64,000 nucleotides of DNA from Candidatus Omnitrophota bacterium (GTDB lineage Bacteria > Omnitrophota > Gorgyraeia > 1-14-0-20-64-10): positions 29,057 to 93,056 of the forward strand of contig JAHFFE010000005.1 of the NCBI GenBank assembly GCA_023248155.1, in the 5' to 3' direction. Below, piece by piece: positions 8,779 through 55,517 of this stretch. The position numbers and the translations under genes were made by a program. Positions within the stretch are counted from its first letter, which is position 1, and every line of letters starts with the position of its first letter. The notes below the pieces were generated by a model. That model searched no databases. It saw nothing but the letters and a program-made list of their open reading frames with translations, and was not told the origin of the DNA.

Positions 8779-8788
8779 AAGAGAAGCG

Positions 8789-14259: not shown

Positions 14260-14261
14260 TC

Positions 14262-16137: not shown

Positions 16138-16139
16138 AC

Positions 16140-18910: not shown

Positions 18911-18926
18911 ACAAGGAGAACCTCAG

Positions 18927-21630: not shown

Positions 21631-21634
21631 TCTT

Positions 21635-30374: not shown

Positions 30375-30867
30375 ATCAGCGGCTGATCTGTTATCGATTC
30401 AGCAGCTGGAAGATAATCGCCGCACCTTAAGCCGTGTCCGCGTGTTATTCTGGATTCTGCTGCCTATTTTGCTGGCAGCAGCTGTTTTGGAATCGTTCGT
30501 CTGGATGAAATCAATTCGCCGAAAACCGGAACCGCTGGCTCCCTCGATCGATGATTTAAAGAAGCCGCTGCCTGAAATCCCGGCACTGGTATTGTCGTCC
30601 GCTTTGTTTGAAATCAAGAAAACGGCTGTACCGGTCAAGCCGCCGGTTGAAACGGCTCCGATGCAGGTGGCTACCGAGCAGGTCCAATGGAAATTGCGCG
30701 GAGTGATCATGGCCGGGAATAAGCGGGCCTCCTTAGAAGATCCGAAAACGCAGCAAACGGTTTGGGTTTCCGAGGGTGACCGCGTCGGAAATTTTGTCGT
30801 GAAGAAAATTGATTCCAACGCTGTCTTGCTTGAACTGGAAGGGAAGGATTATGAAATCCGAATCTAG
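30364..30867 (+). CDS. GspC/PilP-like protein
   Basis: 167 aa with an N-terminal TM. The C-terminal beta-rich segment 'TVWVSEGDRVGNFVVKKIDSNAVLLELEGKDYEIRI' is PilP/GspC-HR-like. Confidence 0.5.
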   Translation: MPDKSAADLLSIQQLEDNRRTLSRVRVLFWILLPILLAAAVLESFVWMKSIRRKPEPLAPSIDDLKKPLPEIPALVLSSALFEIKKTAVPVKPPVETAPMQVATEQVQWKLRGVIMAGNKRASLEDPKTQQTVWVSEGDRVGNFVVKKIDSNAVLLELEGKDYEIRI

Positions 30868-32653
30868 ATTAAGCAGGGCGCGCCGATTTACTGCCATCGG
30901 GCTGGCCGTTTCCCTGGTTCTGCTCCTGACCGGCGATTCTTTTTCGGAAGAAACAAAAAAAATTACCATGAATTTTCAGGGGTTGGATATTGTCGAGGTC
31001 TTGAAGATTTTGGCCGAGCAATCCGGGTTTAATTTGGTGGCCGGCAAGAATGTCAGCGGCCGCGCGACCCTTTTCTTGAAGGATGTCGATCCATGGGAGG
31101 CGCTCGAGGTTGTTGTGGCTGCCAACGAGTTGGCCTATGAAAAGAGAGGCGATATTTTGACGGTAATGAGCCAGCGGGACTACGAGCTGATCCACGGTCA
31201 GCCGTATCAGGATCGCCGGGCGGTCCGCTCTTTCGCGCCCCGCTATGCGAAAGCGGCCGATGTCAGCCGGGCCTTGGCTCAAATGAAATCGAATGTCGGC
31301 CGAGTGATCGCTGATGAAGCAACCAACACGCTGATCCTCATGGATACGCCGGACCTGGTCGAGCAGATGCTGAAGATTTCACAGCAGATGGACCAGCCCG
31401 TCGAGACGCGCGTGGTATCCCTTAATAATGCGCCGGTGAAGGGTCTTCTTCCATCGATACAGGAGTCCCTCACCAAAGGGGTTGGCCGGTTGTCGGCCGA
31501 TGAACGCAGTAATCAGCTGGCGATCACCGATTACCCGGCGCGCCTCAATGAAATCGTTCGGATGGTGAAGGCTTTCGATGAGCGATCCAGCGAAGTCCTC
31601 ATCGACGCCAAGATCGTTCAAGTCACTCTCTCCGATAAATTGCAGTTGGGGATCGACTGGCAGACTTTCATCAGCAAGCAGCTTCAGCTCCAGGGGGCTA
31701 CCGCGCTGAATTTAACCACGGGCGCCATTGCCACCTTCAACGCGTTGGATGGAGCTCAAACCGGTTCTGCCAAGGTGGTGATCGAAGCGCTGCGTACTTT
31801 CGGAAACACCCGCATTTTGTCCGAGCCCCGGCTGCTGGTGGTCAACAACCAGGAATCTAAAATTCTGGTTGGTTCCAAAGAACCGTATGTAACCACCCAG
31901 ATTTCGCAGACCGGAACCGGCACTTCCGTTACCTCGGAGACGGTCAACTTTATTGATGTAGGTGTTAAATTATTCGTGACGCCGACCATTACGCGGGATG
32001 GTTTTGTGCTGATGAAGATTCGCCCGGAAGTTAGTTCGAGAACAGGAACCTTAACGACCTCAGAGAAAAACGAGATACCGATTGTTGAAACGGCTGAAGC
32101 CGAGACCGTTTTATTGGTGCAGGACGGTGGAACCGTAATTTTGGGCGGATTGATTAAAGATGAAGAATTGCTGGACGAACAGCGGATCCCATTCCTGGGG
32201 GATCTCCCTGTTCTGGGTATCCCGTTTCGTTCCCATAGCAAGACCGTTAAGCGGACTGAACTAATCGTTCTTTTGACTCCGCGCATCGTCACCGGGCAAC
32301 GAGGAGAAACTTTTTTCGCCACGCCCGAGGCGCAAGATAAAGCTCAAGCCCCCCAGCTTTTCACATCCGGCCCTGAAACAGAAGAACTCTACGCACGGAC
32401 ACTGGAAGAGGGAATTCAGCGAGTGTCCCGGGTGCAGTCTTTGCTGGGCGCGAAGAAAGGAACGGTTCAGATGAAAGTGACGCTCTTCCCGGATGGGCGC
32501 ATCCAGGGGTTTCCCGAGGTACTCTCTTCCGATGACCCCAGCTTGATCGAGCTGGCTAAAACAGCTATTTTGGCTGCCGCCCCGTTCCCGGCGTTTCCCT
32601 CTGATTTGGAGCAGATTCCAAAGACATTCACAGTTCCCGTGCAGTACGAATAA
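30851..32653 (+). CDS. gspD: Secretin GspD with an unusual C-terminal TonB_C-like domain
   Basis: It has a signal peptide, N0-like and secretin_N domains, and a secretin core ('NNQESKILVGSKEPYV...FIDVGVKLFVTPTITRDGFVLMKIRPEVS'). The C-terminus 'GTVQMKVTLFPDGRIQGF...PFPAFP...FTVPVQYE' is TonB/TolA-C-like. The start is placed at the ATG at 30851. Confidence 0.85.
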   Translation: MKSESRLSRARRFTAIGLAVSLVLLLTGDSFSEETKKITMNFQGLDIVEVLKILAEQSGFNLVAGKNVSGRATLFLKDVDPWEALEVVVAANELAYEKRGDILTVMSQRDYELIHGQPYQDRRAVRSFAPRYAKAADVSRALAQMKSNVGRVIADEATNTLILMDTPDLVEQMLKISQQMDQPVETRVVSLNNAPVKGLLPSIQESLTKGVGRLSADERSNQLAITDYPARLNEIVRMVKAFDERSSEVLIDAKIVQVTLSDKLQLGIDWQTFISKQLQLQGATALNLTTGAIATFNALDGAQTGSAKVVIEALRTFGNTRILSEPRLLVVNNQESKILVGSKEPYVTTQISQTGTGTSVTSETVNFIDVGVKLFVTPTITRDGFVLMKIRPEVSSRTGTLTTSEKNEIPIVETAEAETVLLVQDGGTVILGGLIKDEELLDEQRIPFLGDLPVLGIPFRSHSKTVKRTELIVLLTPRIVTGQRGETFFATPEAQDKAQAPQLFTSGPETEELYARTLEEGIQRVSRVQSLLGAKKGTVQMKVTLFPDGRIQGFPEVLSSDDPSLIELAKTAILAAAPFPAFPSDLEQIPKTFTVPVQYE

Positions 32654-32745
32654 TCTTTCCACACCCTTGATTTCCGGGTTATTTTCAGCCAAACTTCCTT
32701 TGTAAGTTGATGCGCAGATTCACAAACTGAAAAAAGCACACTTCA
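32646..32745 (+). promoter_or_regulatory. Conserved ~100-bp upstream cassette, copy A, preceding S8 protease 1
   Basis: 'acgaataatctt...cccttgattt..ggg.t.ttt.agc...gttgta...gatgcRcAgATTCACAAACTGAAAAA.GCACACTTC' aligns in register with copy B. Confidence 0.55.
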
Positions 32746-32845
32746 ACCGCTTCTGGTTCTCCCAATAGGGGGAATGGGAAGCGATTTTTATGGGGACTAT
32801 ATTGAGCGATTGCTTTAGTTTTTGATCGAAAGCCTGGGGTGCCTG

Positions 32846-35800
32846 ATGGTAATTCTGAAATTTGGCATATCAAAAAATTGGAACAGACTGATCTCCGTTG
32901 CTTTGATCTTTTCTGTCTGTTTCTCGCCCGCATCTCCGGGTGCCGCCGAGGAAAACAAAAGGGGATCATTCTCAGAGAAAACTCCAGCTGCTGTTACTAA
33001 AATTAACGATCAGGGCGATGTAGAGACCAAAGATTCGGCGGATTCTGATGGAAACGACGCATTCCTGCCGGATGAGCTCATTATTAAATTAAAAGACGGT
33101 AAGACACCGAATGATATTGAAGACCTCAATAAGCAGTATGGAGTCATCTCGAATACCAAGCTCTTTGGCGAGAACGCCTCTCCGGAAGACCACTTAAAGG
33201 ATCTCAGGAAAAAATTACAGGAAAAAGAAACTACTCATGAGTCCTGGTATTGGCAGATTGACAAAAATTCCGAAGAATACAAGGAGTATGTGGCCAGGCT
33301 TGAGAAAGAAAAAGAAGAGCTTAAAGAGAGAATCCAGCATTTTGAGCAGAGACTTAAAAGAGCTTCTGGCTATCAGGAAGCCGCCAGAGCTCTCGAGAAT
33401 ATTTACAAATTAAACTTTGCCCAATCCGCAGATATTCCAAGCATCGTTAAAATCTATTCTGCTAATCCTGCGGTAGCCTATGCCGAACCCAACTACAAAG
33501 TAAGCACGAACCAGATTCCCAATGATCCTCGATATCCCGAACAATGGGGTCCTGACAAGATCCAGGCACCGCTTGCCTGGGATGTCACCACAGGTTCCAG
33601 TCAAGTAATCGTTGCTGTTATTGATACGGGAGTAGACTACAACCATCCGGATTTGTCTGCCAATATCTGGAGCGACCCAATCACCGGACAGCATGGATAT
33701 GATTTCTTCAATAAGGACAACGATCCGATGGACGACAACGGTCATGGTACCCACTGCTCCGGCATTGCCAATGCGGTGACCAACAACAGCGTTGGTATTG
33801 CCGGTATCTCCTGGAACTCCAGGATTATGGCAGTTAAATTTCTGAGTGCTTCAGGGTCTGGAAGTATTGACGACGGTGCCTCAGCCATCCGCTGGGCCGC
33901 CGATCACGGCGCCGATGTTCTTTCCAACAGTTGGGGTGGCGGCGGCTATTCCGAAACCGTTAATCTTGCGATTGAGTACGCTCATTCTTTGGGCTGTGTA
34001 GTTGTGGCTGCCGCTGGAAATGATAACACCAATCAGATTTTTTATCCGGCCGGCTATGAGCATGTCATCTCCGTTTCGGCAACCGATCAGAATGATGTCA
34101 AAGCCTATTTCTCCAATTATGGATATTGGGTGGATGTAGCCGCTCCCGGCGTTTCAATTCTATCGACGGTACCTTCTTCGAGCGTGTCGTTGGGGGATCC
34201 TTCAGGGTATAAGCTTCTCAACGGTACTTCGATGGCGTGTCCGCATGTAAGCGGTCTTGCTGCTCTTATTGTTGGGAGCCATCCCGAATTTTCTGATGCA
34301 GATGTATTGAGTGTGTTGAAAGCGACAGCGGATGATATTTTGTCTGCAAATACATCTTATATTGGGCAGGGCAGGATCAATTGCCGCAAAGCGTTGCAAG
34401 TCACTAAACCACCCCCCACGGGAGCGCTTGTCACGGAAGGAGTTTTGTCCGGCAAACGAGTGATACGGGGGATAGCCGGCGGGAGCGATTTCACTGGATA
34501 CTCTCTTTATTATGCCCCAGGACGGGACGCCGTCTCAAGCAGCTGGACGCTCATTGCCCATGCCACAGGTGCTGTTCAGGATGATTTTTCAACACCTCAA
34601 AAAAACGACGGTATCTTATATGCTGATTTTGACACCACTCGGTTAAGCGATGGAAACTACACGCTGAGACTGGTAGTGGAAGGACAAAATAACCTGAATG
34701 TGGAGTACAGAACCAATATTCAATCGAAGAACATCACGGTAGCATTCCCATTGAATAACGACATTCTGAAAAAAGGAGAAACATTTACCATCCGTGGAGG
34801 TATCCTCGGATCATTCTTGGATTATTCCATTGAATATGGTGAAGGTAATAGTCCGACAGTCTGGAAAACGGCAGGAATAACGCTGCTTCATCAGGGGTTG
34901 GGTGAAAATTACGATGGTAATCTTGCGTCCTGGGATACCTCTGTGCTAACCCCCGTCGCTTACGGGCCAGGAAATTTCTACACATTAAGGATCACTGTCA
35001 GAAGGTCATTTGGCGTTATGACGAGTTTTGTTCGTATGGTTTATTTGGACGATAAACTCAAGAGAGGTTGGCCGCAATATATTCCGGAGATAACTGATTA
35101 CATGCCGATTGTGACTGCCGATTTGGATCATGATGGCAGGAAGGAGATTATTATAGTTCAACCGCCTGGTCTGCCGGGTAATCCGACATTACTTTTTGTC
35201 TATAATACTGACGGTTCCTTGCGGTGGTCAAGGCGGTTCAACAAGGATTACAGCGACGGCCAATTCGCTATTCCAGTGGTTGGAGATATGGATGGTGATG
35301 GTTTGCAGGAGATTTTCTTAGCCACACGAAGCGATTCGGATGTTTTTGGCAGTGAAATCCAGGCGATCCGATCAGATGGGTCGGATTTTGGTCACGGATG
35401 GCCTGTTTTTGTGCCCTCTGGCGGCTGTTCCATGCTTGTGAGTGATTTGGACAGGGATGGAAATGTCGAGCTCGTTGTCCGAACGGCCTATCCAACTTAT
35501 GATATAGGAATAGGCGCTCAGTACGTTACCAGCCTGTATATTATCAATAGGCAAGGCCAAATTGGTGTATCAGTTCCTATGCCTTTTGATCATAACCCTG
35601 CAGATCCGCCCAACTTTTCCCATCCCCAGTTTTTGGCTATCGGTAATTTTGATGACGATCCACAAATGGAGATTGTCACGCATTGCCAGGGAGTGAAGAT
35701 CGCTGTTTTTAATATGGACGGATCCATGTTGCCCGGTTGGCCGGTTCGGGTGGGGGAGGCTTTATGGGGGCCTCCCGTCGTGGGTGATGTTGACCGCGAT

Positions 35801-38800
35801 GGCTACGATAACATTGTAGTCGGAACTTTCTTGTGGGATACCTCCGCAGGGGGCCTTTTCGTGCTGGATAAAGACGGCCATACTTTGCCTGGATGGCCTG
35901 TGCTGGCAGATGGCAGTTTTTATACATCTCCCGCTTTGGGAGATTTGGATGGAAATGGATATCTTGAGATTTGTATAAGCCTTGGAAAATGGACATATCT
36001 TTTTGACTATCGCGGGAATAGGTTGCCCGGATGGCCGCGAGAAACCAACGATTATTCCAATTTTTTTAATTCCAATCTTCTTGGGGATGTTAACGGAGAC
36101 GGGAAGGTCGATGTGGTGGCTCGGGCAGGAGGATTTCGATCCGCTGTTGTTCGAACAGGGGATACTTCCACCAGCGGCGGCATTTACGCGTGGAATCTGG
36201 ATGGATCACCCATTGATTTGAATCCTTACTCGAGTAATGTGAATCTTTTTACCGAGTCTTTTTTAGTGGCGTTTGTGGGCACATTCGCGGAGGTGCCTGG
36301 AATTCTTGATGATATTGATAATGACGGAAAAATTGATCTCATCGCCGCTTCAAGAGTCGATATAAAGTGGGTGTCCGATGAAGAGCGAATGGCCGGTGCG
36401 GCTGCTGAGTACAAAAAAAGAGGTTCTATTTACGTATGGAGCCTGGACGCGGCGTATAACGCATCTAAAACTCCCTGGCCTATGTTCCAACATGACAATG
36501 CATGCACTGGCCGTGATCTAGCCGACAAGGATCTGTCGAAACATCCCGACGATCTTGCTCCTCCGAATGTTTTCATGACTGCGCCGGCCCATGATGCGAT
36601 TATTGCCGGAACGATAGAAGTTTCGGCCGAGGCATCTGATAATGTCGGTGTCTCTGGAGTTCAATTTCAGCTGGACGGAGTAAACCTGGGAGACGAAGAC
36701 ACGGAGGCTCCTTATTCGACGGTTTGGGATACGTCAACTTCTGATGCCGGTTATCATACGCTGGGTGCGGTTGCCAGAGACAGTGCCGGCAACAGTGCCG
36801 CATCCATCCTGATCGCGGTAACGGTTAACAGCGTGCCGGTTCTGAACCCCGTTGCGGATCAGGCGGTGCGGGAGATGGATCGGTTAGAGTTTACGTTATC
36901 GGGTACCGATGACGATGGCGATGCTTTAACCTATTCCGCTGATAATCTTCCGGCCGGTGCCAGCTTTAATCCGACCAGTGGTCTTTTTGCATGGACTCCT
37001 GATTATACGCAGGAGGGAGCTTACTCGGTGTACTTTACGGTGAATGATGGGGTGGATGTATCGAATACTCAAACAGTTAATATCACCGTAGAGAATGTTA
37101 ATCGCTTGCCAGTGCTAAACGCGATCCCGGCGCAAACGGTGGATGAAGGAAGTCCGATCTCTGTGACGCTGAGCGGTTCGGATTTGGACGGAGAATCGCT
37201 GACGTACTCCTCTGGAAATCTTCCGACCGGCGCTGTCTTGAACGCCTCTACGGGTTTGTTTGAGTGGACGCCTGACTATACGCAGTCGGGGTCTTATTCG
37301 GTGAGCTTCACGGTGAGTGATGGGACAGCGGTATCGGATACTCAGACAATGAACATCACCGTGCAGAATGTGAATCGCTCTCCAGTGTTGAATGCGATTC
37401 CCGCACAAACGGTGGATGAAGGAAGTCCGATCTCTATTACGCTGAGTGCTTCTGATTTGGACGGAGAATCACTGACGTACTCCTCCGCAAATTTACCGAC
37501 TGGCGCTGTTTTGAATGCCACGACCGGTTTGTTTGAGTGGACGCCTGATTATACGCAGTCGGGGTCGTATTCGGTAAGTTTCACCGCCAGTGATGGGACG
37601 GCGGTATCGGATACTCAGACAGTTGATATCACCGTAGGGAATGTCAACCGTTCTCCCGTGTTGAACGCGATTCCGGCGCAAACGGTTGATGAAGGGAGCC
37701 CGCTCTCGGTAACGCTGAGCGCTTTGGATGCTGATGGCGAATCGCTGACGTACTCCTCTGGAAATCTTCCGGCCGGCGCTGTTTTGAATGCCACTACCGG
37801 TTTGTTTGAATGGATGCCCGACTACACGCAGTCGGGGTCTTATTCAGTGGACTTCACCGCCAGTGATGGAACAGTGGTGACGGGTGCTCAAACAATAAAC
37901 ATCACGGTGCAGAATGTGAATCGTTCACCGGTGTTGAACGCGATTCCTGCGCGAACGGTGGATGAAGGAAGCCCGATCTCTGTGACGCTGAGCGCTTCGG
38001 ATTTGGACGGAGAATCGCTGACTTACTCCTCTGGAAATCTTCCGGCCGGCGCTGTTTTGAATGCCACTACCGGTTTGTTTGAATGGATGCCCGACTACAC
38101 GCAGTCGGGGTCTTATTCAGTGAGTTTCACGGCCAGTGATGGGACGGCGGTATCGGATACTCAGACAGTTGATATCACCGTAGGGAATGTCAACCGTTCA
38201 CCGGTGTTGAACACGATCCCTGCTCAAACAGTGCCGGAAGGGAATCCTTTGGAATTTGTATTCTCAGGGACTGATCCGGACGGAGACGCGTTGACTTATT
38301 CGGTGGGTTCCTTGCCGGTTGGCGCGGTCTGGGATGCTTCTACGCACACCCTTCGTTGGACTCCGACTTATACGCAGTCAGGGCCTTATTCGATAACTTG
38401 TACTGTTTCGGATGGGTCATTGAATGCTTCTGGAACGATGAGTATTACGGTACAGAATGTGAACCGTTCACCGGTGCTTAGCGCGATCCCGGCAAAGACG
38501 GTCGATGAAGGCAGCCCGATCTCTGTCACGCTGAGCGCTTCAGATCCAGACGGAGAATCTCTGACGTACTCCTCCGCAAATTTACCGACCGGCGCTGTGT
38601 TGAATGCCTCTACGGGTTTGTTTGAGTGGACGCCGGGGTATACCCAGGGAGGTCCGGGTTTGGGCACTCCGTATACGATCCAGCTGACGGCCAGCGATGG
38701 CCAGCTGTCTGACACCAAGAGTTTTTCTGTTAACGTCAAAAATAAGAACGGTCCGCCGGAGCTGGCCTTGATCGGGAAGAAAACGATTAACGAGAACGAG

Positions 38801-39304
38801 CAGTTGACGTTTACGGTTTCTGCGACAGAGCCGGATAACGAGAGCATAACATTCAGCGTAAAGAAACTTCCATCCGGCAATTTGCCTTCGGGCGCGTCAT
38901 TCAAAGTAACAACGAAGGTTTTCTCGTGGAAGCCGACATTCTCGCAGTCGGGGACCTATCATTTGGAGTTTAAAGCAAAAGATCCGGGCAATCGTGCGGA
39001 TACCGAAGATGTGGAGATTGTTGTCAATAATGTAAATCGGCCGCCGGTTCTGAATGCGATTTCCAATAAATCGGTCAAGAAAAACCGTTCATTAAGTTTT
39101 ACAATTTCAGGATCGGATCCCGACGGCGGTACGCTGACGTATGCGGCGAAGGATCTGCCGTCCGGCGCGCAGTTTAACGCGGCCACCCGTCAGTTCAGCT
39201 GGACTCCGACAACAACTCAGGTCGGAAGTTATGTGGTGAAGTTTACGCTGACAGATGGTACGGCAACTGTGGAGAAGAGCGTAACGATCACGGTAACAAA
39301 TTAA
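32846..39304 (+). CDS. Giant secreted subtilisin-family (S8) serine protease 1, with signal peptide, I9 propeptide, S8 domain, FG-GAP repeats, an Ig-like domain and about 10 cadherin-like (~95 aa) repeats
   Basis: The catalytic triad motifs are 'VAVIDTGVDYNHPDL', 'HGTHCSGIA' and 'GTSMACPHVSGLA'. FG-GAP repeats include 'DLDHDGRKEII' and 'VGDMDGDGLQEIF'. The start is placed at the ATG at 32846; the tracked ORF starts at TTG 32822. Confidence 0.9.
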   Translation: MVILKFGISKNWNRLISVALIFSVCFSPASPGAAEENKRGSFSEKTPAAVTKINDQGDVETKDSADSDGNDAFLPDELIIKLKDGKTPNDIEDLNKQYGVISNTKLFGENASPEDHLKDLRKKLQEKETTHESWYWQIDKNSEEYKEYVARLEKEKEELKERIQHFEQRLKRASGYQEAARALENIYKLNFAQSADIPSIVKIYSANPAVAYAEPNYKVSTNQIPNDPRYPEQWGPDKIQAPLAWDVTTGSSQVIVAVIDTGVDYNHPDLSANIWSDPITGQHGYDFFNKDNDPMDDNGHGTHCSGIANAVTNNSVGIAGISWNSRIMAVKFLSASGSGSIDDGASAIRWAADHGADVLSNSWGGGGYSETVNLAIEYAHSLGCVVVAAAGNDNTNQIFYPAGYEHVISVSATDQNDVKAYFSNYGYWVDVAAPGVSILSTVPSSSVSLGDPSGYKLLNGTSMACPHVSGLAALIVGSHPEFSDADVLSVLKATADDILSANTSYIGQGRINCRKALQVTKPPPTGALVTEGVLSGKRVIRGIAGGSDFTGYSLYYAPGRDAVSSSWTLIAHATGAVQDDFSTPQKNDGILYADFDTTRLSDGNYTLRLVVEGQNNLNVEYRTNIQSKNITVAFPLNNDILKKGETFTIRGGILGSFLDYSIEYGEGNSPTVWKTAGITLLHQGLGENYDGNLASWDTSVLTPVAYGPGNFYTLRITVRRSFGVMTSFVRMVYLDDKLKRGWPQYIPEITDYMPIVTADLDHDGRKEIIIVQPPGLPGNPTLLFVYNTDGSLRWSRRFNKDYSDGQFAIPVVGDMDGDGLQEIFLATRSDSDVFGSEIQAIRSDGSDFGHGWPVFVPSGGCSMLVSDLDRDGNVELVVRTAYPTYDIGIGAQYVTSLYIINRQGQIGVSVPMPFDHNPADPPNFSHPQFLAIGNFDDDPQMEIVTHCQGVKIAVFNMDGSMLPGWPVRVGEALWGPPVVGDVDRDGYDNIVVGTFLWDTSAGGLFVLDKDGHTLPGWPVLADGSFYTSPALGDLDGNGYLEICISLGKWTYLFDYRGNRLPGWPRETNDYSNFFNSNLLGDVNGDGKVDVVARAGGFRSAVVRTGDTSTSGGIYAWNLDGSPIDLNPYSSNVNLFTESFLVAFVGTFAEVPGILDDIDNDGKIDLIAASRVDIKWVSDEERMAGAAAEYKKRGSIYVWSLDAAYNASKTPWPMFQHDNACTGRDLADKDLSKHPDDLAPPNVFMTAPAHDAIIAGTIEVSAEASDNVGVSGVQFQLDGVNLGDEDTEAPYSTVWDTSTSDAGYHTLGAVARDSAGNSAASILIAVTVNSVPVLNPVADQAVREMDRLEFTLSGTDDDGDALTYSADNLPAGASFNPTSGLFAWTPDYTQEGAYSVYFTVNDGVDVSNTQTVNITVENVNRLPVLNAIPAQTVDEGSPISVTLSGSDLDGESLTYSSGNLPTGAVLNASTGLFEWTPDYTQSGSYSVSFTVSDGTAVSDTQTMNITVQNVNRSPVLNAIPAQTVDEGSPISITLSASDLDGESLTYSSANLPTGAVLNATTGLFEWTPDYTQSGSYSVSFTASDGTAVSDTQTVDITVGNVNRSPVLNAIPAQTVDEGSPLSVTLSALDADGESLTYSSGNLPAGAVLNATTGLFEWMPDYTQSGSYSVDFTASDGTVVTGAQTINITVQNVNRSPVLNAIPARTVDEGSPISVTLSASDLDGESLTYSSGNLPAGAVLNATTGLFEWMPDYTQSGSYSVSFTASDGTAVSDTQTVDITVGNVNRSPVLNTIPAQTVPEGNPLEFVFSGTDPDGDALTYSVGSLPVGAVWDASTHTLRWTPTYTQSGPYSITCTVSDGSLNASGTMSITVQNVNRSPVLSAIPAKTVDEGSPISVTLSASDPDGESLTYSSANLPTGAVLNASTGLFEWTPGYTQGGPGLGTPYTIQLTASDGQLSDTKSFSVNVKNKNGPPELALIGKKTINENEQLTFTVSATEPDNESITFSVKKLPSGNLPSGASFKVTTKVFSWKPTFSQSGTYHLEFKAKDPGNRADTEDVEIVVNNVNRPPVLNAISNKSVKKNRSLSFTISGSDPDGGTLTYAAKDLPSGAQFNAATRQFSWTPTTTQVGSYVVKFTLTDGTATVEKSVTITVTN
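37090..38490 (+). repeat. Intragenic tandem array of about five near-identical ~285-bp units (95-aa cadherin-like domains) within protease 1
   Basis: The unit 'NVNRSPVLNAIPAQTVDEGSPISVTLSASDLDGESLTYSSGNLPxGAVLNATTGLFEWTPDYTQSGSYSVSFTASDGTAVSDTQTVDITVQ' recurs at about 37090, 37375, 37660, 37945 and 38230. DNA identity between units is high; units 2 and 5 are nearly identical over more than 110 nt. Confidence 0.85.
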
Positions 39305-39305
39305 C

Positions 39306-39405
39306 ACGAATAATCTTCTTCCGCCCTTGATTTTTGGGCTGTTTTAAGCGATAGTTCCGTTGTAACAGGATGCACATATTCACAAACTGAAAAAGGCACA
39401 CTTCG
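39306..39405 (+). promoter_or_regulatory. Conserved upstream cassette, copy B, preceding S8 protease 2
   Basis: It is collinear with copy A from the stop-codon-proximal 'acgaataatctt' through 'ttcacaaactgaaaaaggcacacttc'. Confidence 0.55.
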
Positions 39406-39583
39406 GGGAACTGAAGGTCGCAAAGCCGCGGGTCCGTCCAGAGCAGGCTGGCGGATAGTCGGGCTACCAGGCAAAAGAAAATCAGGCTGGCAAGCGATCT
39501 TGGGATTCCCATGAACAGGGAAACCGGGATTTTTTATTTAGGCTGAATTTCGACTGTTTCAAAAAGGTTAACGGGGGGCTCAG

Positions 39584-42500
39584 ATGAAATTGACCAACTT
39601 CCGGAAGTGCAGCTGGAATCGATCCCCGTCTCTGTTTCTGGTGGTTTCCCTGTGTTTCTTGCAAATGCCGGTGACTTTCGCGCAGGCAATGGTCGATGAA
39701 GCTGTTCCGCCAACGAAAGCAATGACAGACGGATCTTTTGTTCCCGGCGAGCTGATTGTGAAGCTCAATGAAGGAAAGACCATGGAAGATTTGGCGGATC
39801 TGAATAGCGAATTTAATATCGTTTCAAGCGACCGGCTCTTTCAACATCTTGAGGCTTCTTCCGGGGATATCGGGAAGATGAAGAAAAAACTCAAAGAATT
39901 GAATGGCTTTCATGAGTCCTGGTACTGGCAGTTCGATAAGAATTCCAAAGAATACAAGGATTACCTGGCTAGACTTGAACAGCAGAAGAAAATTCTTGAG
40001 GCCGAGATCCAAAAAGCCGAACAGAGGCAGCAAATCTCCGATAAAGCCATCCAGAACAATCGCCTGGAAGATATCTATAAACTGGAAGTGGCCGAAAAGA
40101 CAACCGATATTTTGGCGATGGCCAGGACTTATTCAGCCCATCCCGCGGTGAAATATGCCGAGCCCAACTACGAAGTGAAAGTCAATTTCGAGCCCAATGA
40201 CCAGTACTGGACCAGCTCGGGAAGCTGGGGACAGCCCTACGACGATCTCTGGGGCCTCAAAAAAATCAAAGCGAATCTCGCCTGGGACAAGAGCAAGGGA
40301 GAGGGGATCATCGTCGCCGTGATTGACACCGGCGTGGATTATAATCACGAAGACATTAAAGACAATATGTGGATTAATCCCGCGGATGGGACATATGGGT
40401 TTAATTTTACCGCCAGCGGGGAAAGGGCTTATTTGATCCGAGATCCCATGGATGATCATGGTCATGGCACCCACTGCGCGGGAACCATTGCCGCCATTCA
40501 GAATAATGGTGTCGGCATTACCGGCGTGGCGCCGAGGGCGCGGATCATGGCCATTAAAGGTCTAAATAGAGAGGGGTCTGGCAGCGCGAGCAATCTTTCT
40601 GAAAGCGTCATTCAGGCCGTTCAAAGCGGAGCCGATGTCTTGAGCAATTCGTGGGGAGGAAGCGGGAGAAGCGATGTTTTTGAAGATGTTTTCAGGACGG
40701 CTCAGCAGAGTGGTGTCGTTTCTGTGGTGGCGGCAGGTAATGATAATGTAGATGCTTTGGATTTTCACCCCGCGTATTTGCCATCCGTCATTACGGTGGC
40801 GGCTTCCAATCCCGATGATGTTCGATGTTCTTTTTCCAATTACGGGGCTAAAGCCGATGTCTCGGCTCCGGGCGGCGACAGCGCCGGAACGAACGATGGA
40901 GACAATTTTTGGGGACGCAATATTCTGTCGCTTCGTTCCGATAACAAGGGTGACCCGACGGATATGTATTATCAGCCGCCCGGCGCGCATGAGCAGCAGG
41001 TGGTGGGCGGTAAATATTATCGGGCGCGCGGCACGTCCATGGCCTGTCCGCACGTCGCCGGAGTGGTGGCGCTGATTTTATCTGAACATCTTGATTTTTT
41101 GAATAAAGATCTGAATTTAGGCTCCCAAACCGGCAAAGTTCTTAGTATTTTGAAGGCGACCGGCGAACCCGTTTCGGAATCCAACCCGTTAAAATTCGTA
41201 GGTCCTCGGGTAAACGCATACGCAGCTCTTCAAGTCACACAGGAGCTGCCGGTAGGCATTTTAAAATCGATCGACGGTGAGCAATCTCCTTTGCCGCTTG
41301 TCCGCGGCATCGCTGGCGGGGCTAATTTCCTTCGATATGCGGTTTATTATGCCCATGCTGAGGATCCAACCTCCTGGAATCTGGTGACCGAATCGTCGAT
41401 ACCTGTTTTGGATGATCTGGCGACTGCCGATCCGGATGACGGGATCCTGAGCGACGCTCTTACCGTGGATAAGACCGGCTCGTACCTCGTGAGGTTGATT
41501 GTTTATTCCGTGGATGGCAAGCAGGTGATATCCCAAGTATCGTTTACGATTCCCAATGCGATTACAGCGCCGCTTTCCAACGACTTTATCAGCAGAAATA
41601 CAACGGCCGCCATCAAGGCGGATCTTAAGGGTGTTTATCAGGATTATGTTGTTGAATGGGGTGAGGGGAAGACCCCCCTGGAATGGAGAATCGCCGGAAT
41701 TACTCGTCTTCATCCCGGGCCGGGGGCGGATTTTTCAGGTGACATCGCTCTGTGGAATACCGCGCTCGTTCCATCGAGTTCTTATGCCAACGGCAGTTTC
41801 TACACGATCCGGGTAGGAATTCAAAAGTCGGGCGGCTGGGTTTACTCGTACAAAAACCTTATTTATCTTGATGCGGTTATGAAGCCCGGTTGGCCGCAGT
41901 ATATTCGGCCCGCCTGGTGGGATTTAAAGGCCGAGGATCAGGAACGGTTTAAGCAAGGAGATACGACCGATGTTACGGCAGCGGATCTTGACGGCGACGG
42001 GCAAAAAGAGATCATCGTTTGCGTTGCTAAGGTCAGAGATGAACAGCAGGGGAGCCTCTCTGTTTATAACAGCGACGGTTCTTTGCGCTGGTCAATAACC
42101 GTAGAAGATCTTCAATACACTGTTCCGGTCATTGGCGATATTAACGATGACGGAAAACAGGAAATATTCCTCGCGAATTCTTCTACGGAAGACAAGCTTT
42201 ACGGTTTCAAGTACGACGGCGGTGTTTTTCCGGGTTTCCCGGTCTCATTGGAGCGTTCCTCGTTTTTTATGATGGCCGATTTAAAATCGCCCGGAAACGC
42301 CGGTAAACGCCTCATCGGGATTTCTAAATTCTCCTATAGCGGAGAAGGTAAAACAGCGGTCATCTTGAAAAAAGACGGATCCGTTCAAAAGAAATTTAAA
42401 TTTACTAAGGGATCGAATTTAAGCGAAGTAATCCGATCACAGATCCCTGCGGTAGGCAATTTTGACAATGACCCGGAACTCGAGATTGTTGCCGTACAAG

Positions 42501-44296
42501 CCAACGGTGTCCAAGCGTTTAACCCCAACGGCACTCTTTGCGCGGGCTGGCCTTCTTCGGCCAATCAAATGCCCGAAGGTTATGATATTTACGGGTGCCC
42601 GGCCGTGGGAGATATCGATGGCGACGGATATGATAATGTGGTTGTGGCCGCTTTCAAAACACGTAGAGTGTCGGCAACCGGCGGTTTCAAGATTCTCAAT
42701 GAAGACCTGGCTGTTTTTGCTTTCGACAAGAACGGAGGCATCATGCCTGGCTGGCCCGTGCTGATGAATCAATTGTCTGACCTGATGACAAAGATGCCGT
42801 ACAGCCGCTATCAGTCTCCCGCGCTTGCGGATTTTAATGGAGACGGAAAACTTGAGATCGCGTTCGGCGTGGGGCCTTTTCATTATTTGTTCGACTACCG
42901 AGGCAATGTTCTTCCGGGCTGGCCGAGAAGCGTGCCGGCTCCGAGTATTCACCATGTGCAGATGGCCATTGGCGACGTGGACGGCGATGGAACGCCGGAT
43001 CTGATCTCTTCTGCCGGTGGTTTGCAAAAAGAGATCTTTACGGAGGAATCCTTGAGCACCACAGGAGGAATTTTTGCCTGGAAATTTGACGGGACACCCA
43101 TTGATCTTAATCCGGATCCGTCTATGGATTTCCTCCCGACCGAATTTGAAAGCAAGCCGCCCTTGACTCTTTCGGATATCGATGCGGATGGAAAAATAAA
43201 TATTGTTGCCAGTACTACGCAGGATTTCGTATTTGCCGAACATCAAGTCGCTCCAGTCAGCAAGCAGAGGCGCTCCATTAATGTCTGGGGATTGAACACC
43301 GCTTACGATGCCTCTACGATGCAGTGGCCTATGTATCAGCACGACACCATGCGCACGGGCCGTTACGTGAGTTCGGTTGAGGTTACTCCGGATCCTAATC
43401 CTGATCCGACACCCGTGCCAACCTCGAAGCCGGCTAAACCTTCTAGCCTGGGTGCGACTGCTGTTTCTGTTTCTCAGATCAACCTGGCATGGGCAGACAA
43501 CGCTAACAACGAGACGGGCTTTAAGATATACCGAAGCCTCACGGACTCGAATTATGTTGAGGTGGCCACGGCGTCTGCCAACGCGGTTTCATTCAGTGAT
43601 TTGAATCTTAACGCCGATACCCGATATTATTACAAGGTCTCGGCTGTTAATGCCGCCGGAGAATCGGCCAAATCCAGCAAGGCGGATGCCCGGACGAACG
43701 CGGTTCCGCAGCCGCCGGCTAAACCGTCTAACCTGGGTGCGACTGCTGTTTCTGCGTCTCAGATCAACCTGGCATGGGCAGATAACGCTAGCAACGAGAC
43801 GGGCTTCAAGATATATCGAAGTCTGACGGACTCGAACTATGCCGAGGTCGCTACGGCGCCTGCCAACGCGGTGTCATTCAGTGATGGGGGTCTGAACTCC
43901 GGCACCCGGTATTATTACAAGGTCTCGGCTTTCAATGCCGCCGGAGAATCGGCTTTCTCAAGCCAGGTTTCTGCGGTGACAATGTCTGTTACAGATCCAG
44001 CCCCTGCTCCGGATCAGGTTCCGGCGAAACCGGATAATCTTGGAGCACAGCAAATTTCAAGTTCCAGGATTCGGCTGACTTGGACGGATCGTTCGAGCAA
44101 CGAAACGGGTTTCAAGATATACAGAAGCATATCCCACAGGGCGCAGGATTCTATCTTGGTCGCTACCGTCTCGGCCAATGTCACGCACTACACCGATACC
44201 GGCCTTGATCGCGGACACCGCTATGGTTACAGGGTTTCTGCCGTTAATGGATCGGGTGAGTCCGAAAAAGCCGGCCCTGTCTATGAAAGGCTATAA
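39584..44296 (+). CDS. Giant secreted S8 serine protease 2, with signal peptide, propeptide, S8 domain, FG-GAP repeats and 3 C-terminal fibronectin-III domains
   Basis: Triad motifs are 'VAVIDTGVDYNHEDI', 'HGTHCAGTIA' and 'GTSMACPHVAGVVALI'. The FN3 repeats show 'TGFKIYRS...YYYKVSA'. Confidence 0.9.
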   Translation: MKLTNFRKCSWNRSPSLFLVVSLCFLQMPVTFAQAMVDEAVPPTKAMTDGSFVPGELIVKLNEGKTMEDLADLNSEFNIVSSDRLFQHLEASSGDIGKMKKKLKELNGFHESWYWQFDKNSKEYKDYLARLEQQKKILEAEIQKAEQRQQISDKAIQNNRLEDIYKLEVAEKTTDILAMARTYSAHPAVKYAEPNYEVKVNFEPNDQYWTSSGSWGQPYDDLWGLKKIKANLAWDKSKGEGIIVAVIDTGVDYNHEDIKDNMWINPADGTYGFNFTASGERAYLIRDPMDDHGHGTHCAGTIAAIQNNGVGITGVAPRARIMAIKGLNREGSGSASNLSESVIQAVQSGADVLSNSWGGSGRSDVFEDVFRTAQQSGVVSVVAAGNDNVDALDFHPAYLPSVITVAASNPDDVRCSFSNYGAKADVSAPGGDSAGTNDGDNFWGRNILSLRSDNKGDPTDMYYQPPGAHEQQVVGGKYYRARGTSMACPHVAGVVALILSEHLDFLNKDLNLGSQTGKVLSILKATGEPVSESNPLKFVGPRVNAYAALQVTQELPVGILKSIDGEQSPLPLVRGIAGGANFLRYAVYYAHAEDPTSWNLVTESSIPVLDDLATADPDDGILSDALTVDKTGSYLVRLIVYSVDGKQVISQVSFTIPNAITAPLSNDFISRNTTAAIKADLKGVYQDYVVEWGEGKTPLEWRIAGITRLHPGPGADFSGDIALWNTALVPSSSYANGSFYTIRVGIQKSGGWVYSYKNLIYLDAVMKPGWPQYIRPAWWDLKAEDQERFKQGDTTDVTAADLDGDGQKEIIVCVAKVRDEQQGSLSVYNSDGSLRWSITVEDLQYTVPVIGDINDDGKQEIFLANSSTEDKLYGFKYDGGVFPGFPVSLERSSFFMMADLKSPGNAGKRLIGISKFSYSGEGKTAVILKKDGSVQKKFKFTKGSNLSEVIRSQIPAVGNFDNDPELEIVAVQANGVQAFNPNGTLCAGWPSSANQMPEGYDIYGCPAVGDIDGDGYDNVVVAAFKTRRVSATGGFKILNEDLAVFAFDKNGGIMPGWPVLMNQLSDLMTKMPYSRYQSPALADFNGDGKLEIAFGVGPFHYLFDYRGNVLPGWPRSVPAPSIHHVQMAIGDVDGDGTPDLISSAGGLQKEIFTEESLSTTGGIFAWKFDGTPIDLNPDPSMDFLPTEFESKPPLTLSDIDADGKINIVASTTQDFVFAEHQVAPVSKQRRSINVWGLNTAYDASTMQWPMYQHDTMRTGRYVSSVEVTPDPNPDPTPVPTSKPAKPSSLGATAVSVSQINLAWADNANNETGFKIYRSLTDSNYVEVATASANAVSFSDLNLNADTRYYYKVSAVNAAGESAKSSKADARTNAVPQPPAKPSNLGATAVSASQINLAWADNASNETGFKIYRSLTDSNYAEVATAPANAVSFSDGGLNSGTRYYYKVSAFNAAGESAFSSQVSAVTMSVTDPAPAPDQVPAKPDNLGAQQISSSRIRLTWTDRSSNETGFKIYRSISHRAQDSILVATVSANVTHYTDTGLDRGHRYGYRVSAVNGSGESEKAGPVYERL
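43423..44290 (+). repeat. Three tandem FN3-coding repeats (~288-bp period) at the 3' end of protease 2. Units 1 and 2 are about 90% identical at DNA level.
   Basis: 'ccggctaaaccttctagcctgggtgcgactgctgtttctg...' at 43432 repeats at 43720. Confidence 0.8.
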
Positions 44297-44323
44297 TAGC
44301 TTCAGTTGCCATAGGTGACACTT

Positions 44324-44368
44324 TCTTTGTAGACTGATGCATAGATTTACAAACTGAAAAATGCATAC
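44324..44368 (+). promoter_or_regulatory. Conserved upstream core, copy C, preceding S8 protease 3
   Basis: 'ctttgtagactgatgcatagatttacaaactgaaaaatgcatac' shares the 'tgatgcRYAgAtTtACAAACTGAAAAAtGCAtAC' core. Confidence 0.5.
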
Positions 44369-44391
44369 TGTTTTTTAACGGGGGGGCTCAG

Positions 44392-47300
44392 ATGAAATTA
44401 ACCAACTTCCGGAAGTCCAGATGGAATCGATCCCTGTCTCTGTTTTTAGTAGCCTCCCTGTGCTTTTTGCAAATGCCGGTGACTTTCGCGCAGGCGATGG
44501 TTCCGGAATCCGCCGATCCCACTCAGATTGAGCCATCAGAAGATCTTCCAGAGTATGTTCCCGGCGAATTCATAGTGAAGCTGAAAGAAGGGCACACGCT
44601 GGCCGAGTTGGACGGCCTGCGGGTGGAAAACGGGATATTGAGCGCAGAACCAATTTTCCCGAAGGTAGCTTCTCCGGAAGAAAACTTGGCGGAACTTAAG
44701 CAGAAGCGGGCGGGTCTGGATAACCCGGATCATACGTCCTGGTTTTGGTGGTCGAACAAAGAATCGAGCGAGGCGAAAAATTACGAAGCGCGCAACGCTC
44801 GAGAGAAAGCTCGGTTAGACGCGGCGATCGCCGCGCAAACAGCGTTGGTCCAGAAACTAGTGGATCGCAAAAAGAGGGCACCCGAGGGATCGGTAGTACC
44901 TTCGTTGGAGGGGATTCATCTGCTGAAAGCCGCTTCCGACGCGGATGTTTCTTCCTTAGTAGCGATATTCCAGTCTAATCCCGCGGTGGACTATGCGCAA
45001 CCTAACTACAAACAAAAAATCCTCCAGGTTCCCAATGACGAATTCTATTCGATCCAGTGGGGTCCGCAGAAAATACAGGCCGATCTTGCCTGGGACATCA
45101 CCACCGGATCAGAGGATGTCATCATCGCCGTCATTGATACAGGGGTGGACTACAACCATCCGGACTTGGCGGCCAATATCTGGAGTGACCCAATCACCGG
45201 ACAGCATGGATATGATTTCTTCAATAATGACAATGATCCCATGGATGACCATGGCCATGGCACCCACTGCTCCGGTATTGCCAACGCGGTGACCAATAAC
45301 GCGATCGGTGTCGCCGGGATATCCTGGAATTCAAAGATTATGGCCTTAAAATTTTTATCTGCCGCCGGTTCGGGAGACACAGTGGATGGCCTTCGGGCCA
45401 TCGAATGGGCTGTCGATCATGGCGCGGATGTTCTCTCCAATAGCTGGGGAGGAGGGCCCTACGAGCCACCCCTTCAGCTGGCTATTGATTACGCGGATGC
45501 TTCGGGGTGCGTTGTCGTGGCAGCGGCTGGAAACAGTAATACCGATCGGGTTTTTTATCCTGCCGCCTATAATCATGTCATCTCTGTTGCGGCGACAAGT
45601 CGCAATGACCAAAGGGCTTCCTTTTCCAATTATGGCCCCTCGGTCGACGTGGCGGCTCCCGGTGTCGCCATTCTTTCCACGGTTCCTTCTTCGGGCGCGG
45701 CGCTGCGAGATCCGAGCGGCTACCGGTTGCTCAGCGGTACTTCGATGGCGTGTCCTCATGTCGCGGGCCTCGCGGGCCTGCTTCTCGCGGGTCGGCCGGG
45801 ACTTTCAACTCAGGAGGTTGAAAGCGTTCTGAAAGCAAGTTCGGATGATATATATGCGCAGCAGATCCCTGACCCCCTTACCGGTGCTTCTGTGCCGCTG
45901 AATCCGCTCTATATCGGCCAAGGCCGCATCAACGCCAGGAAAGCTGTGGAATTGATCCAAGGCCTGCCGATTGGAGCTCTTGTCACGCAAGGCCTATTGA
46001 CCGGTCCGGTGATTCGGGGATTAGCGGGCGGGGCCAATTTCGCGCGGTATGATCTTTATCATGGAAAGGGAATAAATCCCGCTCGAAGCGAGTGGGTGTT
46101 TATCCATGGTTCTACGGTACCCGTGCTGGATGATCCGGCGACTCCGGCGGCTAATAACGACGGCATCTTGTATGCTGATTTTGATCCAACGACGCTGGAA
46201 GAAGGGAAAAACACCTTAATTCTCGTGATCCAAACGCTGGATGGCCGCGAAATAGAATACAGGACGAGTGTCATGGCCATCAATTTTACCGCTCTCTTTC
46301 CGCTCAACAACGATATTCTGAGGAAAGGCGACAGTATTACTGTTCGCGGATCTATCCTGGGTTCGTTTCTGGATTATACAGTCCAGTACGGTGAGGGCAA
46401 GAATCCGCAGGTTTGGAAAACGGAAGGAATATCGCTGCTTCATCCGGGAGCCGGCAGAAACGTCGAGGGGGATCTCGCGTCCTGGGATACGTCTGTTGTG
46501 CCGCCGACGTCGCTGCTGTTTGGGAATTTTTACACATTAAAAATCAGCGTGACGAGAGAATCCGGCGTGAAGGACTATTTCATTTATATGGTTTATCTGG
46601 ACGATAAATTGAAACAGGGATGGCCGCAATACATCCAAAAATCTTCTTCCGGAAGCGCTGACTTCGCGGACATGAAAACAGCGGACCTGGATCAGGACGG
46701 CATCAAGGAGATCATTACGGTTCGCGCTGGAACCGAAATGGTTCCGATTACGGCTTTGTTTGTCTATCGTCTGGACGGATCTCTGAAATGGTCGAAGCAA
46801 TTGGACGGTTTTGGGAACGGGAGTATCGTTCCCTTGATTGGAGATATAAACAGGGATGGCAAAAACGAAATTTTTGTGAGCGTGCGTGATCCAGCCAGCC
46901 CGAGTGCCGATAAAATATATGCGTTTAACGGCGATGGAACTAATTTTGGCACGGGTTGGCCGGCCACGATAAGGCTTGGGCTCGCGACGCTTCTCATGGC
47001 GGATCTCAATCAGGACGGGAAAAATAAAATTGTCGCCCGGTCGCACAACAGTGAGTTGATCGGCGGCCGCGAGAAGGAGTTCCTGTTTATCCTCAATCAA
47101 GCGGGTGTTATCGAGAAGGAGATCGAGTTTCCGAATCAGTCGCGGAGTTTTTCGCGGTCACCTTTTCAGTCGGTTGGAAATTTTGATGACGATCGGGAGC
47201 TTGAAATTGTCCTGGTTTCTGGAACCGGATTAGCCGGTTCTTCTGAATCCGCTGTTTTTGTTTTTAATCCCGACGGTTCGCTGGTTTCCGGCTGGCCTGC

Positions 47301-54809: not shown

Positions 54810-54833
54810 AATAGAATATTGATTTTTTACCGC

Positions 54834-54872
54834 TTGACAGTAGAGAAATGTCTATGTAGACTAATCTCTATG
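54834..54872 (+). promoter_or_regulatory. Putative lexA promoter with an overlapping palindromic operator
   Basis: The -35 'TTGACA' is at 54834-54839, followed by a 17-nt spacer and a -10-like 'TAGACT'. The inverted repeat 'GTCTAtgTAGAC' lies within a 30-bp imperfect palindrome 'tagagaaatgtctatgtagactaatctcta' immediately upstream of the ATG at 54870. Confidence 0.4.
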
Positions 54873-55517
54873 AAGAACAAACAACTCCTAACCCCTCGGC
54901 AGCAGCAGCTTTTGGAAGTCATCCGTCAGCAGATCGCGAAACGGGGAATTCCTCCCTCGATTCGCGAAATGAAGGAGGCGATCGGCGTGAATTCATTGCG
55001 CGGCGTCACGATTCATCTGGATGGGCTGGAAGAAAAAGGTTACATTGAGCGCAGCCGTCAGGCGCGTTCGATCCGTATTTTGAATCCACAAAACAGCGGT
55101 GTTGAAGACGATTCGTTCGTTACGCCGGTTCCGTATATGATTCCGGTCGTGGGCCAGATTGCCGCCGGACAGCCGTTGCTGGCCGAACAGCATGTTGAAG
55201 AACGGCTGGCGGTTGATCCGCGCTGGGTCCCGGGTCCCGGTTGTTTCGCGGTCCGCGTGCGCGGTGAAAGCATGATTAACGCCGGAATCAATGACGGCGA
55301 CTATGTCATGGTTCGTCCCCAGCAGGATGCGCAGAACGGCGAGGTAGTCGCAGTTCTCATTGAAGGTGAAGCCACCGTCAAACGATTTTACCGCGAAAAG
55401 AACGGAATGATTCGTTTGCAGCCTGAAAACCCGGCCATGGAACCGATGATTTACAATCCGAAAAACCAGTCAATTCGTATCATCGGCAAGGTCGCCGGCC
55501 TCTTCCGCAAGTTTTAA
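54870..55517 (+). CDS. lexA: LexA repressor (wHTH + S24 autopeptidase)
   Basis: An Ala-Gly cleavage site 'IAAGQPLLAEQHV' is present. The S24 motifs are 'RVRGESMINAGI' (Ser) and 'TVKRF' (Lys). The start is placed at the ATG at 54870; the tracked ORF starts at TTG 54819. Confidence 0.85.
   Translation: MKNKQLLTPRQQQLLEVIRQQIAKRGIPPSIREMKEAIGVNSLRGVTIHLDGLEEKGYIERSRQARSIRILNPQNSGVEDDSFVTPVPYMIPVVGQIAAGQPLLAEQHVEERLAVDPRWVPGPGCFAVRVRGESMINAGINDGDYVMVRPQQDAQNGEVVAVLIEGEATVKRFYREKNGMIRLQPENPAMEPMIYNPKNQSIRIIGKVAGLFRKF

Follow-up and report, generated by a model that had tools for sequence, protein, structure and literature searches.

A c-di-GMP-I riboswitch and its deletion remnants in the leaders of S8 protease genes next to an Omnitrophota secretion operon

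Introduction

Why does a non-coding cassette of about 100 nucleotides (nt) recur in front of three paralogous protease genes, each time at a different distance from the start codon? The question is raised by a 64,000-nt stretch of DNA from an Omnitrophota bacterium (contig JAHFFE010000005.1; called the window below, and numbered from its first letter for all gene and cassette coordinates), in which the final gene of a type II secretion operon, encoding a secretin, is followed by four genes for S8 subtilases bearing long arrays of adhesion-type repeats. The phylum Omnitrophota is uncultured and consists of ultra-small bacteria that may be predatory or depend on a host. A preliminary description of the window had reported copies of the cassette upstream of protease genes 1, 2 and 3 and had taken it for a transferable regulatory module, perhaps the binding site of a dedicated regulator that coordinates protease expression. 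Here we report that the second copy leads into an intact riboswitch aptamer of the cyclic di-GMP (c-di-GMP) class I, and that the other two copies end in short remnants of the same aptamer. We regard the cassette as the 5′ part of paralogous leaders that stem from one riboswitch architecture, complete in copy 2 and shortened by deletion in copies 1 and 3, and put the probability of this reading at roughly 80%.

Results

Copy 2 contains an intact c-di-GMP-I aptamer

When the window was scanned with the Rfam covariance models at curated thresholds, a single match was obtained, the c-di-GMP-I (GEMM-I) aptamer within copy 2 (RF01051, 58.2 bits against a gathering score of 35 bits, E=8.6e-9). By its covariance score, the copy 2 leader is a member of this riboswitch class, with a predicted response to the ligand. 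Its first nucleotides, ACUGAAAAAGGCACACUUC, are the conserved core of the cassette, and the core aligns base for base with positions 1-19 of the Rfam model. In structural terms, ACAAACTGAAAAA(G)GCACAC corresponds to the 5′ strand of P1, the A-rich joining region and the beginning of the first hairpin (P1a). Copy 2 has both hairpins, P1a with a GGAA tetraloop and P1b as the second, and it retains the ligand-contact G and the CGCAAAGCC motif. The parts of the three leaders are as follows.

32646-32745, + strand: cassette copy 1, a post-secretin spacer with promoter-like hexamers, a short 5′ leader and an aptamer stub
32726-32743, + strand: aptamer stub of copy 1 (18 nt, ACTGAAAAAAGCACACTT), comprising the P1 5′ strand, the A-rich joining region and the beginning of P1a
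32748-32791, + strand: copy 1 terminator, a 16-bp hairpin (32748-32783) followed by ATTTTTAT, −26.3 kcal/mol
39306-39405, + strand: cassette copy 2, with promoter-like hexamers and a left edge, ACGAATAATCTT, that is a non-coding copy of the secretin 3′ end
39385-39471/39472, + strand: intact c-di-GMP-I aptamer
39403-39421, + strand: antiterminator strand UCGGGGAACUGAAGGUCGC, the 3′ half of P1a plus the junction, complementary to the 5′ arm of the terminator
39496-39539, + strand: copy 2 intrinsic terminator, a hairpin (39496-39531) overlapping the UUUUUUAUUU tract
44324-44369, + strand: cassette copy 3, about 30 nt of pre-aptamer leader plus a 17-nt stub

A related locus, L018, whose secretin is 87% identical to that of the window, carries the same cassette directly after the secretin stop codon and continues into an intact aptamer of 64.9 bits, which is followed by the same terminator hairpin that adjoins the stub in copy 1 of the window. 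The tetraloop of the L018 aptamer is GAAA, a GNRA loop like the GGAA of copy 2. All 26 of the 26 predicted pairs are kept between the two aptamers, and four one-sided changes still allow pairing. In both, an unpaired G stands at model position 11, and CGCAAAGCC and the 3′ UACC align to the consensus. The ligand-contact nucleotides are those that we take to be G20, A47 and C92 in Vc2 numbering. As a separate observation, a 9-nt direct repeat, CAGGCTGGC, is found at 39444-39452 (P1b loop and 3′ arm) and again at 39483-39491 (linker before the terminator).

The cassette is confined to three leaders of one locus

Alignments and core counts bear out the three copies of the preliminary description. 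In blastn alignments, copies 1 and 2 share 79.8% identity along 99 gap-free nt, and copy 3 is 82% identical to copy 1 (50 nt) and 85% identical to copy 2 (34 nt). With up to 3 mismatches, a 23-nt core occurs exactly three times in the window, always on the + strand (0.00 expected from 100 shuffles), and the 13-mer ACAAACTGAAAAA likewise has three occurrences against 0.18 expected. This 13-nt core is invariant in all four copies (the three of the window and that of L018), including the two without an aptamer.

The secretin and protease genes that flank the copies are listed here.

30809-32653, + strand: secretin gene (GspD-like with a TonB_C-like tail; Pfam Secretin 8.5e-47 plus Secretin_N)
32846-39304, + strand: S8 subtilase gene 1, about 2150-2160 amino acids (aa), Peptidase_S8 with FG-GAP, He_PIG, Big_9 and cadherin-like repeats
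39584-44296, + strand: S8 subtilase gene 2, 1570 aa; an identical protein is encoded on contig L001
44392-50868, + strand: S8 subtilase gene 3, 2158 aa
50865-54809, + strand: S8 subtilase gene 4, 1314 aa, with a start overlapping the stop codon of gene 3 and no leader of its own

Homologs of the secretin carry the names of Omnitrophica/Omnitrophota proteins from metagenome-assembled genomes, which places the window in Candidatus Omnitrophota. The most likely start of gene 1 is ATG 32846, in frame with TTG 32822; it was chosen because of the frame, a GGGG Shine-Dalgarno-like run upstream and the N-terminal similarity to genes 2 and 3. Gene 4 is presumably co-transcribed with gene 3, given the overlap and the missing leader.

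The distance from cassette to start codon varies as had been described, with actual gaps of 100, 178 and 23 nt instead of 100, 179 and 24 nt. It varies because the full ancestral leader was shortened by deletions, of the aptamer in copy 1 and of both aptamer and terminator in copy 3. The supposed beginning of the cassette at the stop codon of the upstream gene applies to copy 1, whose left edge, ACGAATAA, comprises the final codons of the secretin gene with its stop codon. In copy 2, this 12-nt string follows closely on the gene 1 stop codon and is non-coding.

Being short, repeated, non-coding and intergenic, the cassette might also be a mobile repeat or the remnant of a miniature inverted-repeat transposable element (MITE). 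We consider the likelihood of this practically negligible, since there are only three copies, in one orientation and all before paralogous genes, and the 5′ part of the cassette is an ancestral spacer of this locus (see below); no terminal inverted repeats were seen when reading the sequence. The search for further copies that the preliminary description had proposed as a check yielded none in public genome and metagenome collections. Exact-pattern scans with YACAAACTGAAAAANGCAYAC gave 8 matches in 185,579 species genomes and 8 in the metagenomes of the Joint Genome Institute, none extending past the pattern; these were chance 21-mers in unrelated taxa or unrelated phage-like coding sequence (MTDEELLYKLKNAY...). 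Together, the three copies upstream of paralogs and the lack of related copies in those collections effectively refute a dispersed repeat.

Copies 1 and 3 are deletion remnants

Neither copy 1 nor copy 3 gave an Rfam riboswitch match even at E<=10. They keep only the first 17-18 nt of the aptamer (model positions ~1-19) and are remnants, not members of RF01051. Copy 1 has suffered an 87-nt deletion at 32743/32744, directly after the stub: in alignment A2, exactly 87 columns shared by L018 and copy 2 are empty in copy 1, and the sequence on either side stays collinear. The deletion took the linker and the remainder of the aptamer with its antiterminator strand. As it is identical in assemblies L001 and L027, which come from two different samples and carry the same stub sequence, it is real and fixed in this population. 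The terminator that now follows the stub is 88% identical to that of L018.

In copy 3, the stub ACTGAAAAATGCATACT (17 nt, 44353-44369) is followed by GTTTTTTA and then by a ribosome-binding site common to copy 2. The copy aligns to copy 2 through ...GCAYACT and resumes at TTTTTTA, continuing into the ribosome-binding site and the start codon. The alignment gap covers the aptamer and the terminator, and both of its sides match. The TTTTTTA of GTTTTTTA may be left over from the U-tract of the terminator. At the position of the ligand-contact G, copy 3 has a T, and in the copy 1 stub the G is lost. Such changes are expected because the aptamer is gone.

Two other interpretations of copy 1 were discarded. 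A cyclic AMP-GMP variant of the G20A type is ruled out, as copy 1 has no aptamer. A possible second aptamer fragment before the start of gene 1, GATCGAAAGCC, which resembles the aptamer sequence GGTCGCAAAGCC, was treated as chance because it overlaps the ribosome-binding site and is followed by no other part of the aptamer.

Conservation of stub and terminator

As a neutral benchmark, we used the identity at four-fold degenerate sites of the secretin genes of the window and L018, which is 72.8%. Against L018, copy 1 is identical at 58 of 69 positions upstream of the core, at 24 of 24 in core and stub and at 42 of 48 in the terminator; past the terminator, the value drops to 39/54, which is about neutral. 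With a neutral divergence of ~27%, a stub identity of 24/24 has a probability of about 5e-4. By this comparison, stub and terminator appear to have been constrained for most of the divergence between the window and L018, owing either to a recent deletion or to a retained role.

These values bear on a sceptical explanation, according to which recent gene conversion or segmental duplication between the tandem paralogs fully accounts for the similarity of the leaders, and remnants 1 and 3 are functionless. Exchange between the paralogs has left visible traces. At its left edge, copy 2 bears the non-coding duplicate of the secretin 3′ end, ACGAATAATCTT, identical at 12/12 positions. From −16 to +110 (39568-39694 and 44376-44502), a stretch made up of ribosome-binding site and signal peptide, genes 2 and 3 share 90% identity, compared with 39% for the proteins overall; this suggests gene conversion at their 5′ ends, or strong constraint. 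The best DNA match between genes 1 and 2 is the leader. Decay of the ligand-contact G in both stubs also fits a lack of function. Such exchange is, however, compatible with descent of the leaders from one riboswitch architecture and does not exclude it. On its own, it leaves the 24/24 identity of the stub to L018 unexplained, unless the deletion is very recent, as well as the good conservation of the copy 1 terminator. We therefore judge it somewhat unlikely as the full account.

The expression platform of copy 2 and L018

Downstream of the aptamer, the 5′ arm of the terminator is complementary to the P1a segment. The duplex of P1a with this arm has −25.8 kcal/mol in copy 2 and −27.4 kcal/mol in L018, and in each case a single one of 2000 shuffles attained the value. 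Complementarity to the aptamer is preserved in both terminators, although these share only 53% identity with each other. In folds of partial transcripts ending in the 5′ arm of the terminator, the minimum-energy structure switches to the antiterminator in copy 2 and in L018; at that length, the antiterminator is favoured over the fold with an intact aptamer by 9.5 kcal/mol (copy 2) and 4.4 kcal/mol (L018). An aptamer linked in this way to antiterminator and terminator is the standard layout of a transcriptional OFF switch. On these computed energies, we lean towards the assumption that copy 2 and its L018 counterpart act as transcriptional OFF switches. In copy 1, the terminator hairpin (−26.3 kcal/mol plus AUUUUUAU) folds unopposed, with no competing structure. 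Pairing of the 5′ core with the conserved U-rich TTTTAGTTT past the terminator, considered for copy 1 and L018, was no better than in shuffled sequences (80/1000 and 163/1000, respectively).

Promoter candidates and the possibility of an operator

Ahead of the aptamer, copy 1 has the hexamers TTGATT (32667-32672) and CAAACT (32690-32695) separated by a 17-nt gap, and also TAAGTT (32703-32708). Copy 2 has TTGATT (39327-39332), a 17-nt gap and GATAGT (39350-39355). This arrangement, with CAAACT, GATAGT or CATAGT as the second hexamer, is positionally conserved and aligns with TTGATA, a 17-nt gap and TAAACT in relative L024, which makes it the sigma-70-type candidate promoter with the best phylogenetic support. 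A transcript starting from it would begin ~20-25 nt ahead of the aptamer. Copy 3 has a different promoter-like site, TTGCCA, an 18-nt gap and TAGACT, at 44306-44335. Inspection by eye revealed no convincing motif of sigma-54 or extracytoplasmic function (ECF)-type promoters. A −10-like TATATT (32798-32803; TATCTT in L018), with only a weak −35, TGGGAA, lies past the copy 1 terminator and ahead of gene 1, which it could serve as a promoter independent of the terminator.

The same region is where a protein-binding module would have to reside, that is, a promoter or operator for a dedicated regulator or an alternative sigma factor, to which the riboswitch of copy 2 would be an add-on. The ~65 nt ahead of the aptamer are conserved beyond the neutral expectation (the 58/69 of copy 1 and L018, against 0.728), the hexamers hold their positions even in relatives without a riboswitch, and an invariant 13-nt core in aptamer-less copies fits a role at the DNA level, e.g. 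as a promoter-proximal or start-site element. Nevertheless, the match to Rfam model positions 1-19 explains the conservation of the core without any protein, and conservation of the stubs could reflect recent deletion or gene conversion, as at the 5′ ends of genes 2 and 3. No palindrome or direct-repeat operator was seen by eye, and no dedicated regulator gene stands beside the proteases, where lexA at 54819 is the sole nearby DNA-binding gene. Moreover, copy 3 is without the upstream 50 nt, including the best −35 candidate. An operator thus seems quite improbable to us, and the proposal of the preliminary description gives way to the Rfam covariance models, by which the best conserved section of the cassette corresponds to the initial ~20 nt of a c-di-GMP-I aptamer. 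What stands of the transferable module is a regulatory leader, a promoter plus an RNA element of the 5′ untranslated region, that was duplicated with the protease genes; it is not self-contained.

Relatives of the locus

Beyond L018, relatives offer partial views of the leader. In L019 (secretin 67% identical), the contig ends 162 nt past the secretin stop codon, and its last 24 nt give a 3′-truncated match to the c-di-GMP-I clan (E=0.27), the sole Rfam match in those 162 nt, which is suggestive only. L028, at 73% secretin identity, and the more distant relatives with at most 64% (L020-L026) gave no riboswitch match or have no protease gene downstream. What follows the secretin gene in these relatives is a protease gene behind a short spacer, a porin gene or genes for PilZ-domain proteins. 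Over its first ~65 nt, the cassette can be aligned with the post-secretin spacers of the riboswitch-less relatives (alignment A5), and this part therefore represents the ancestral, promoter-bearing intergenic region of the locus. In L020 (secretin 64%), the 84-nt spacer (8138-8222) opens like the cassette (TAATTTTTTCCACGCACCC), and AAAGGCACAC stands 10 nt ahead of the start codon of an S8 protease gene. It may be a third, independent riboswitch stub. A search for orthologs of genes 2 and 3 with their leaders was uninformative; the best match, 53% identical, lies on a 3-kb contig with a 21-nt spacer.

Two features of the secretion locus itself point to c-di-GMP. In L026, two genes for PilZ-domain proteins, which are c-di-GMP receptors, directly follow the secretin gene in place of the proteases (9621-12028) and are a second link of this secretion locus to the messenger. 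In the window, the GspE-like ATPase (23209-24840) has an MshEN domain, whose residues 10-33, RIGDLLIKEGVITSDQLEQALAAQ, fit the 24-residue c-di-GMP-binding motif described by Wang et al. 2016 (PMC5013675). The second motif expected in tandem, at residues 40-63, is degenerate. Judged by these motifs, c-di-GMP may act both on the secretion machine and on the proteins that are its likely substrates.

Other features of the window

Gene 1 encodes 2160 aa in the window and 1978 aa in the near-identical contig L001 (3785-9721). Identical hairpin-containing segments are present in gene 1 at 37817 and 38090, 273 nt apart. The length difference points to copy-number variation of immunoglobulin-like repeats or to assembly collapse. 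The lexA gene (LexA DNA-binding domain plus Peptidase_S24; 54819-55517) begins 10 nt past gene 4 on the same strand. Upstream of the secretion operon lies an isoprenoid/hopanoid biosynthesis cluster (7951-22855) with polyprenyl synthetase, DXP synthase, squalene-hopene cyclase, a DUF3463 radical-SAM protein (HpnH-like) and LytB, and the start of the window is occupied by a very large open reading frame (23-7879, 2618 aa).

Discussion

The position of the intact aptamer suggests how the protease genes may be controlled. In the ancestral leader, the promoter region behind the secretin gene would have been followed by a short 5′ leader, the aptamer, the antiterminator/terminator platform, a ribosome-binding site and the S8 gene. 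Without ligand, the 5′ arm of the terminator would pair with the 3′ half of P1a, forming the antiterminator and permitting read-through. Binding of c-di-GMP would hold P1a closed, allow the terminator to form and thus lower protease transcription. Copy 2 would gate gene 2 directly. Genes 2 and 3 are separated by a spacer of only 95 nt, and gene 4 overlaps its predecessor; transcription starting in the copy 2 leader may therefore extend into genes 3 and 4, and read-through from gene 2 is probably their route of expression. Copy 3, without aptamer and terminator, would in that case leave them indirectly under the copy 2 riboswitch, and its remnant is perhaps a relic or an internal unregulated promoter. 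In copy 1, where a terminator is left without an antiterminator, transcripts entering gene 1 from its own leader or from the secretion operon would terminate regardless of c-di-GMP. A coordinated expression of the proteases by three copies of the cassette, as had been proposed, is therefore unlikely, since the deletions in copies 1 and 3 predict diverged responses.

Several observations weigh against this picture. The minimum-energy fold of the full-length leader consists of aptamer plus terminator, and the OFF logic therefore depends on folding kinetics. The cassette contains several overlapping promoter-like hexamer pairs, and one of them, TTGTAA with a 17-nt gap to CAAACT, would put the transcription start inside the aptamer. 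Permanent silencing fits poorly with the intact frame of ~2150 codons in gene 1, which may be expressed by terminator read-through or from another promoter. The proposed ancestry of copy 3 is read solely from its paralogs, and no ortholog with an intact riboswitch before gene 3 was found. Finally, two intact aptamers were compared, and they show no two-sided covariation.

If the constraint on stub and terminator reflects a retained role, the deletions might even be adaptive. They would then have rewired the paralogs to three settings, i.e. an unrelievable terminator, a ligand-gated one and an uncoupled gene, while the ~20-nt stub was kept as an essential start-site or early-transcript element. 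We regard this as unlikely, although AAAGGCACAC of L020, as a candidate stub, would fit recurrent loss of the riboswitch. If true, it would be a natural case of regulatory subfunctionalisation through riboswitch truncation.

The locus presents a natural deletion series of one riboswitch, in intact, aptamer-less and aptamer- and terminator-less form, with the ancestral state of copy 1 preserved in L018. It should be useful for studying how riboswitches are lost and which of their parts survive. For annotation, it advises caution, as conserved repeats before paralogs proved to be riboswitch stubs. The likely control signal for these secreted proteases is c-di-GMP, sensed directly by RNA, which provides a testable hypothesis on when Omnitrophota cells deploy them.

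Known members of RF01051 include Vc2 of Vibrio cholerae, Cd1 of Clostridioides difficile and Bc1 of Bacillus thuringiensis. Copy 2 and L018 share with this family the two-hairpin architecture, the GNRA tetraloop, CGCAAAGCC, the ligand-contact G and the downstream intrinsic terminator. They differ in their Omnitrophota host and in their targets, which are very large secreted S8 proteases beside a type II secretion operon, and two paralogous leaders of the locus are deletion remnants. Variants of the same aptamer fold, the GEMM-Ib riboswitches, respond to cyclic AMP-GMP and carry G20A at the specificity position (PMC6274999). The copy 1 stub AAAAAAGCAC, compared with the intact AAAAAGGCAC, superficially resembles this G-to-A change of the Geobacter GEMM-Ib elements. 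In contrast to them, copy 2 and L018 keep the G at the specificity position, and the change in copy 1 is decay; c-di-GMP is therefore the expected ligand.

In Omnitrophota, gspD/E/F secretion loci have been described ahead of very large genes that encode S8 peptidase and adhesion-type domains (West-Roberts et al., bioRxiv 10.1101/2023.11.21.568195). This layout recurs in the window and its relatives, whereas the proteases reported here, with 1,300-2,200 aa, fall outside the giant class. That study mentions neither riboswitches nor c-di-GMP, and our literature search on Omnitrophota found no paper tying c-di-GMP riboswitches to the phylum. The association of a c-di-GMP-I riboswitch with type II secretion-linked S8 proteases thus appears to be undescribed so far. 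In C. difficile, class I c-di-GMP riboswitches are OFF switches, including Cdi-1-12 upstream of the protease gene zmpI (PMC6200980). Like Cdi-1-12, copy 2 is a class I switch on a secreted protease gene, and the same OFF direction is predicted. Unlike zmpI, which encodes a zinc metalloprotease and for which the direction has been measured, gene 2 encodes an S8 subtilase of a bacterium from another phylum and its direction of control is predicted. In summary, the riboswitch of copy 2 belongs to a known class; the host and the gene context are new, and the pattern of decay among the paralogs is instructive.

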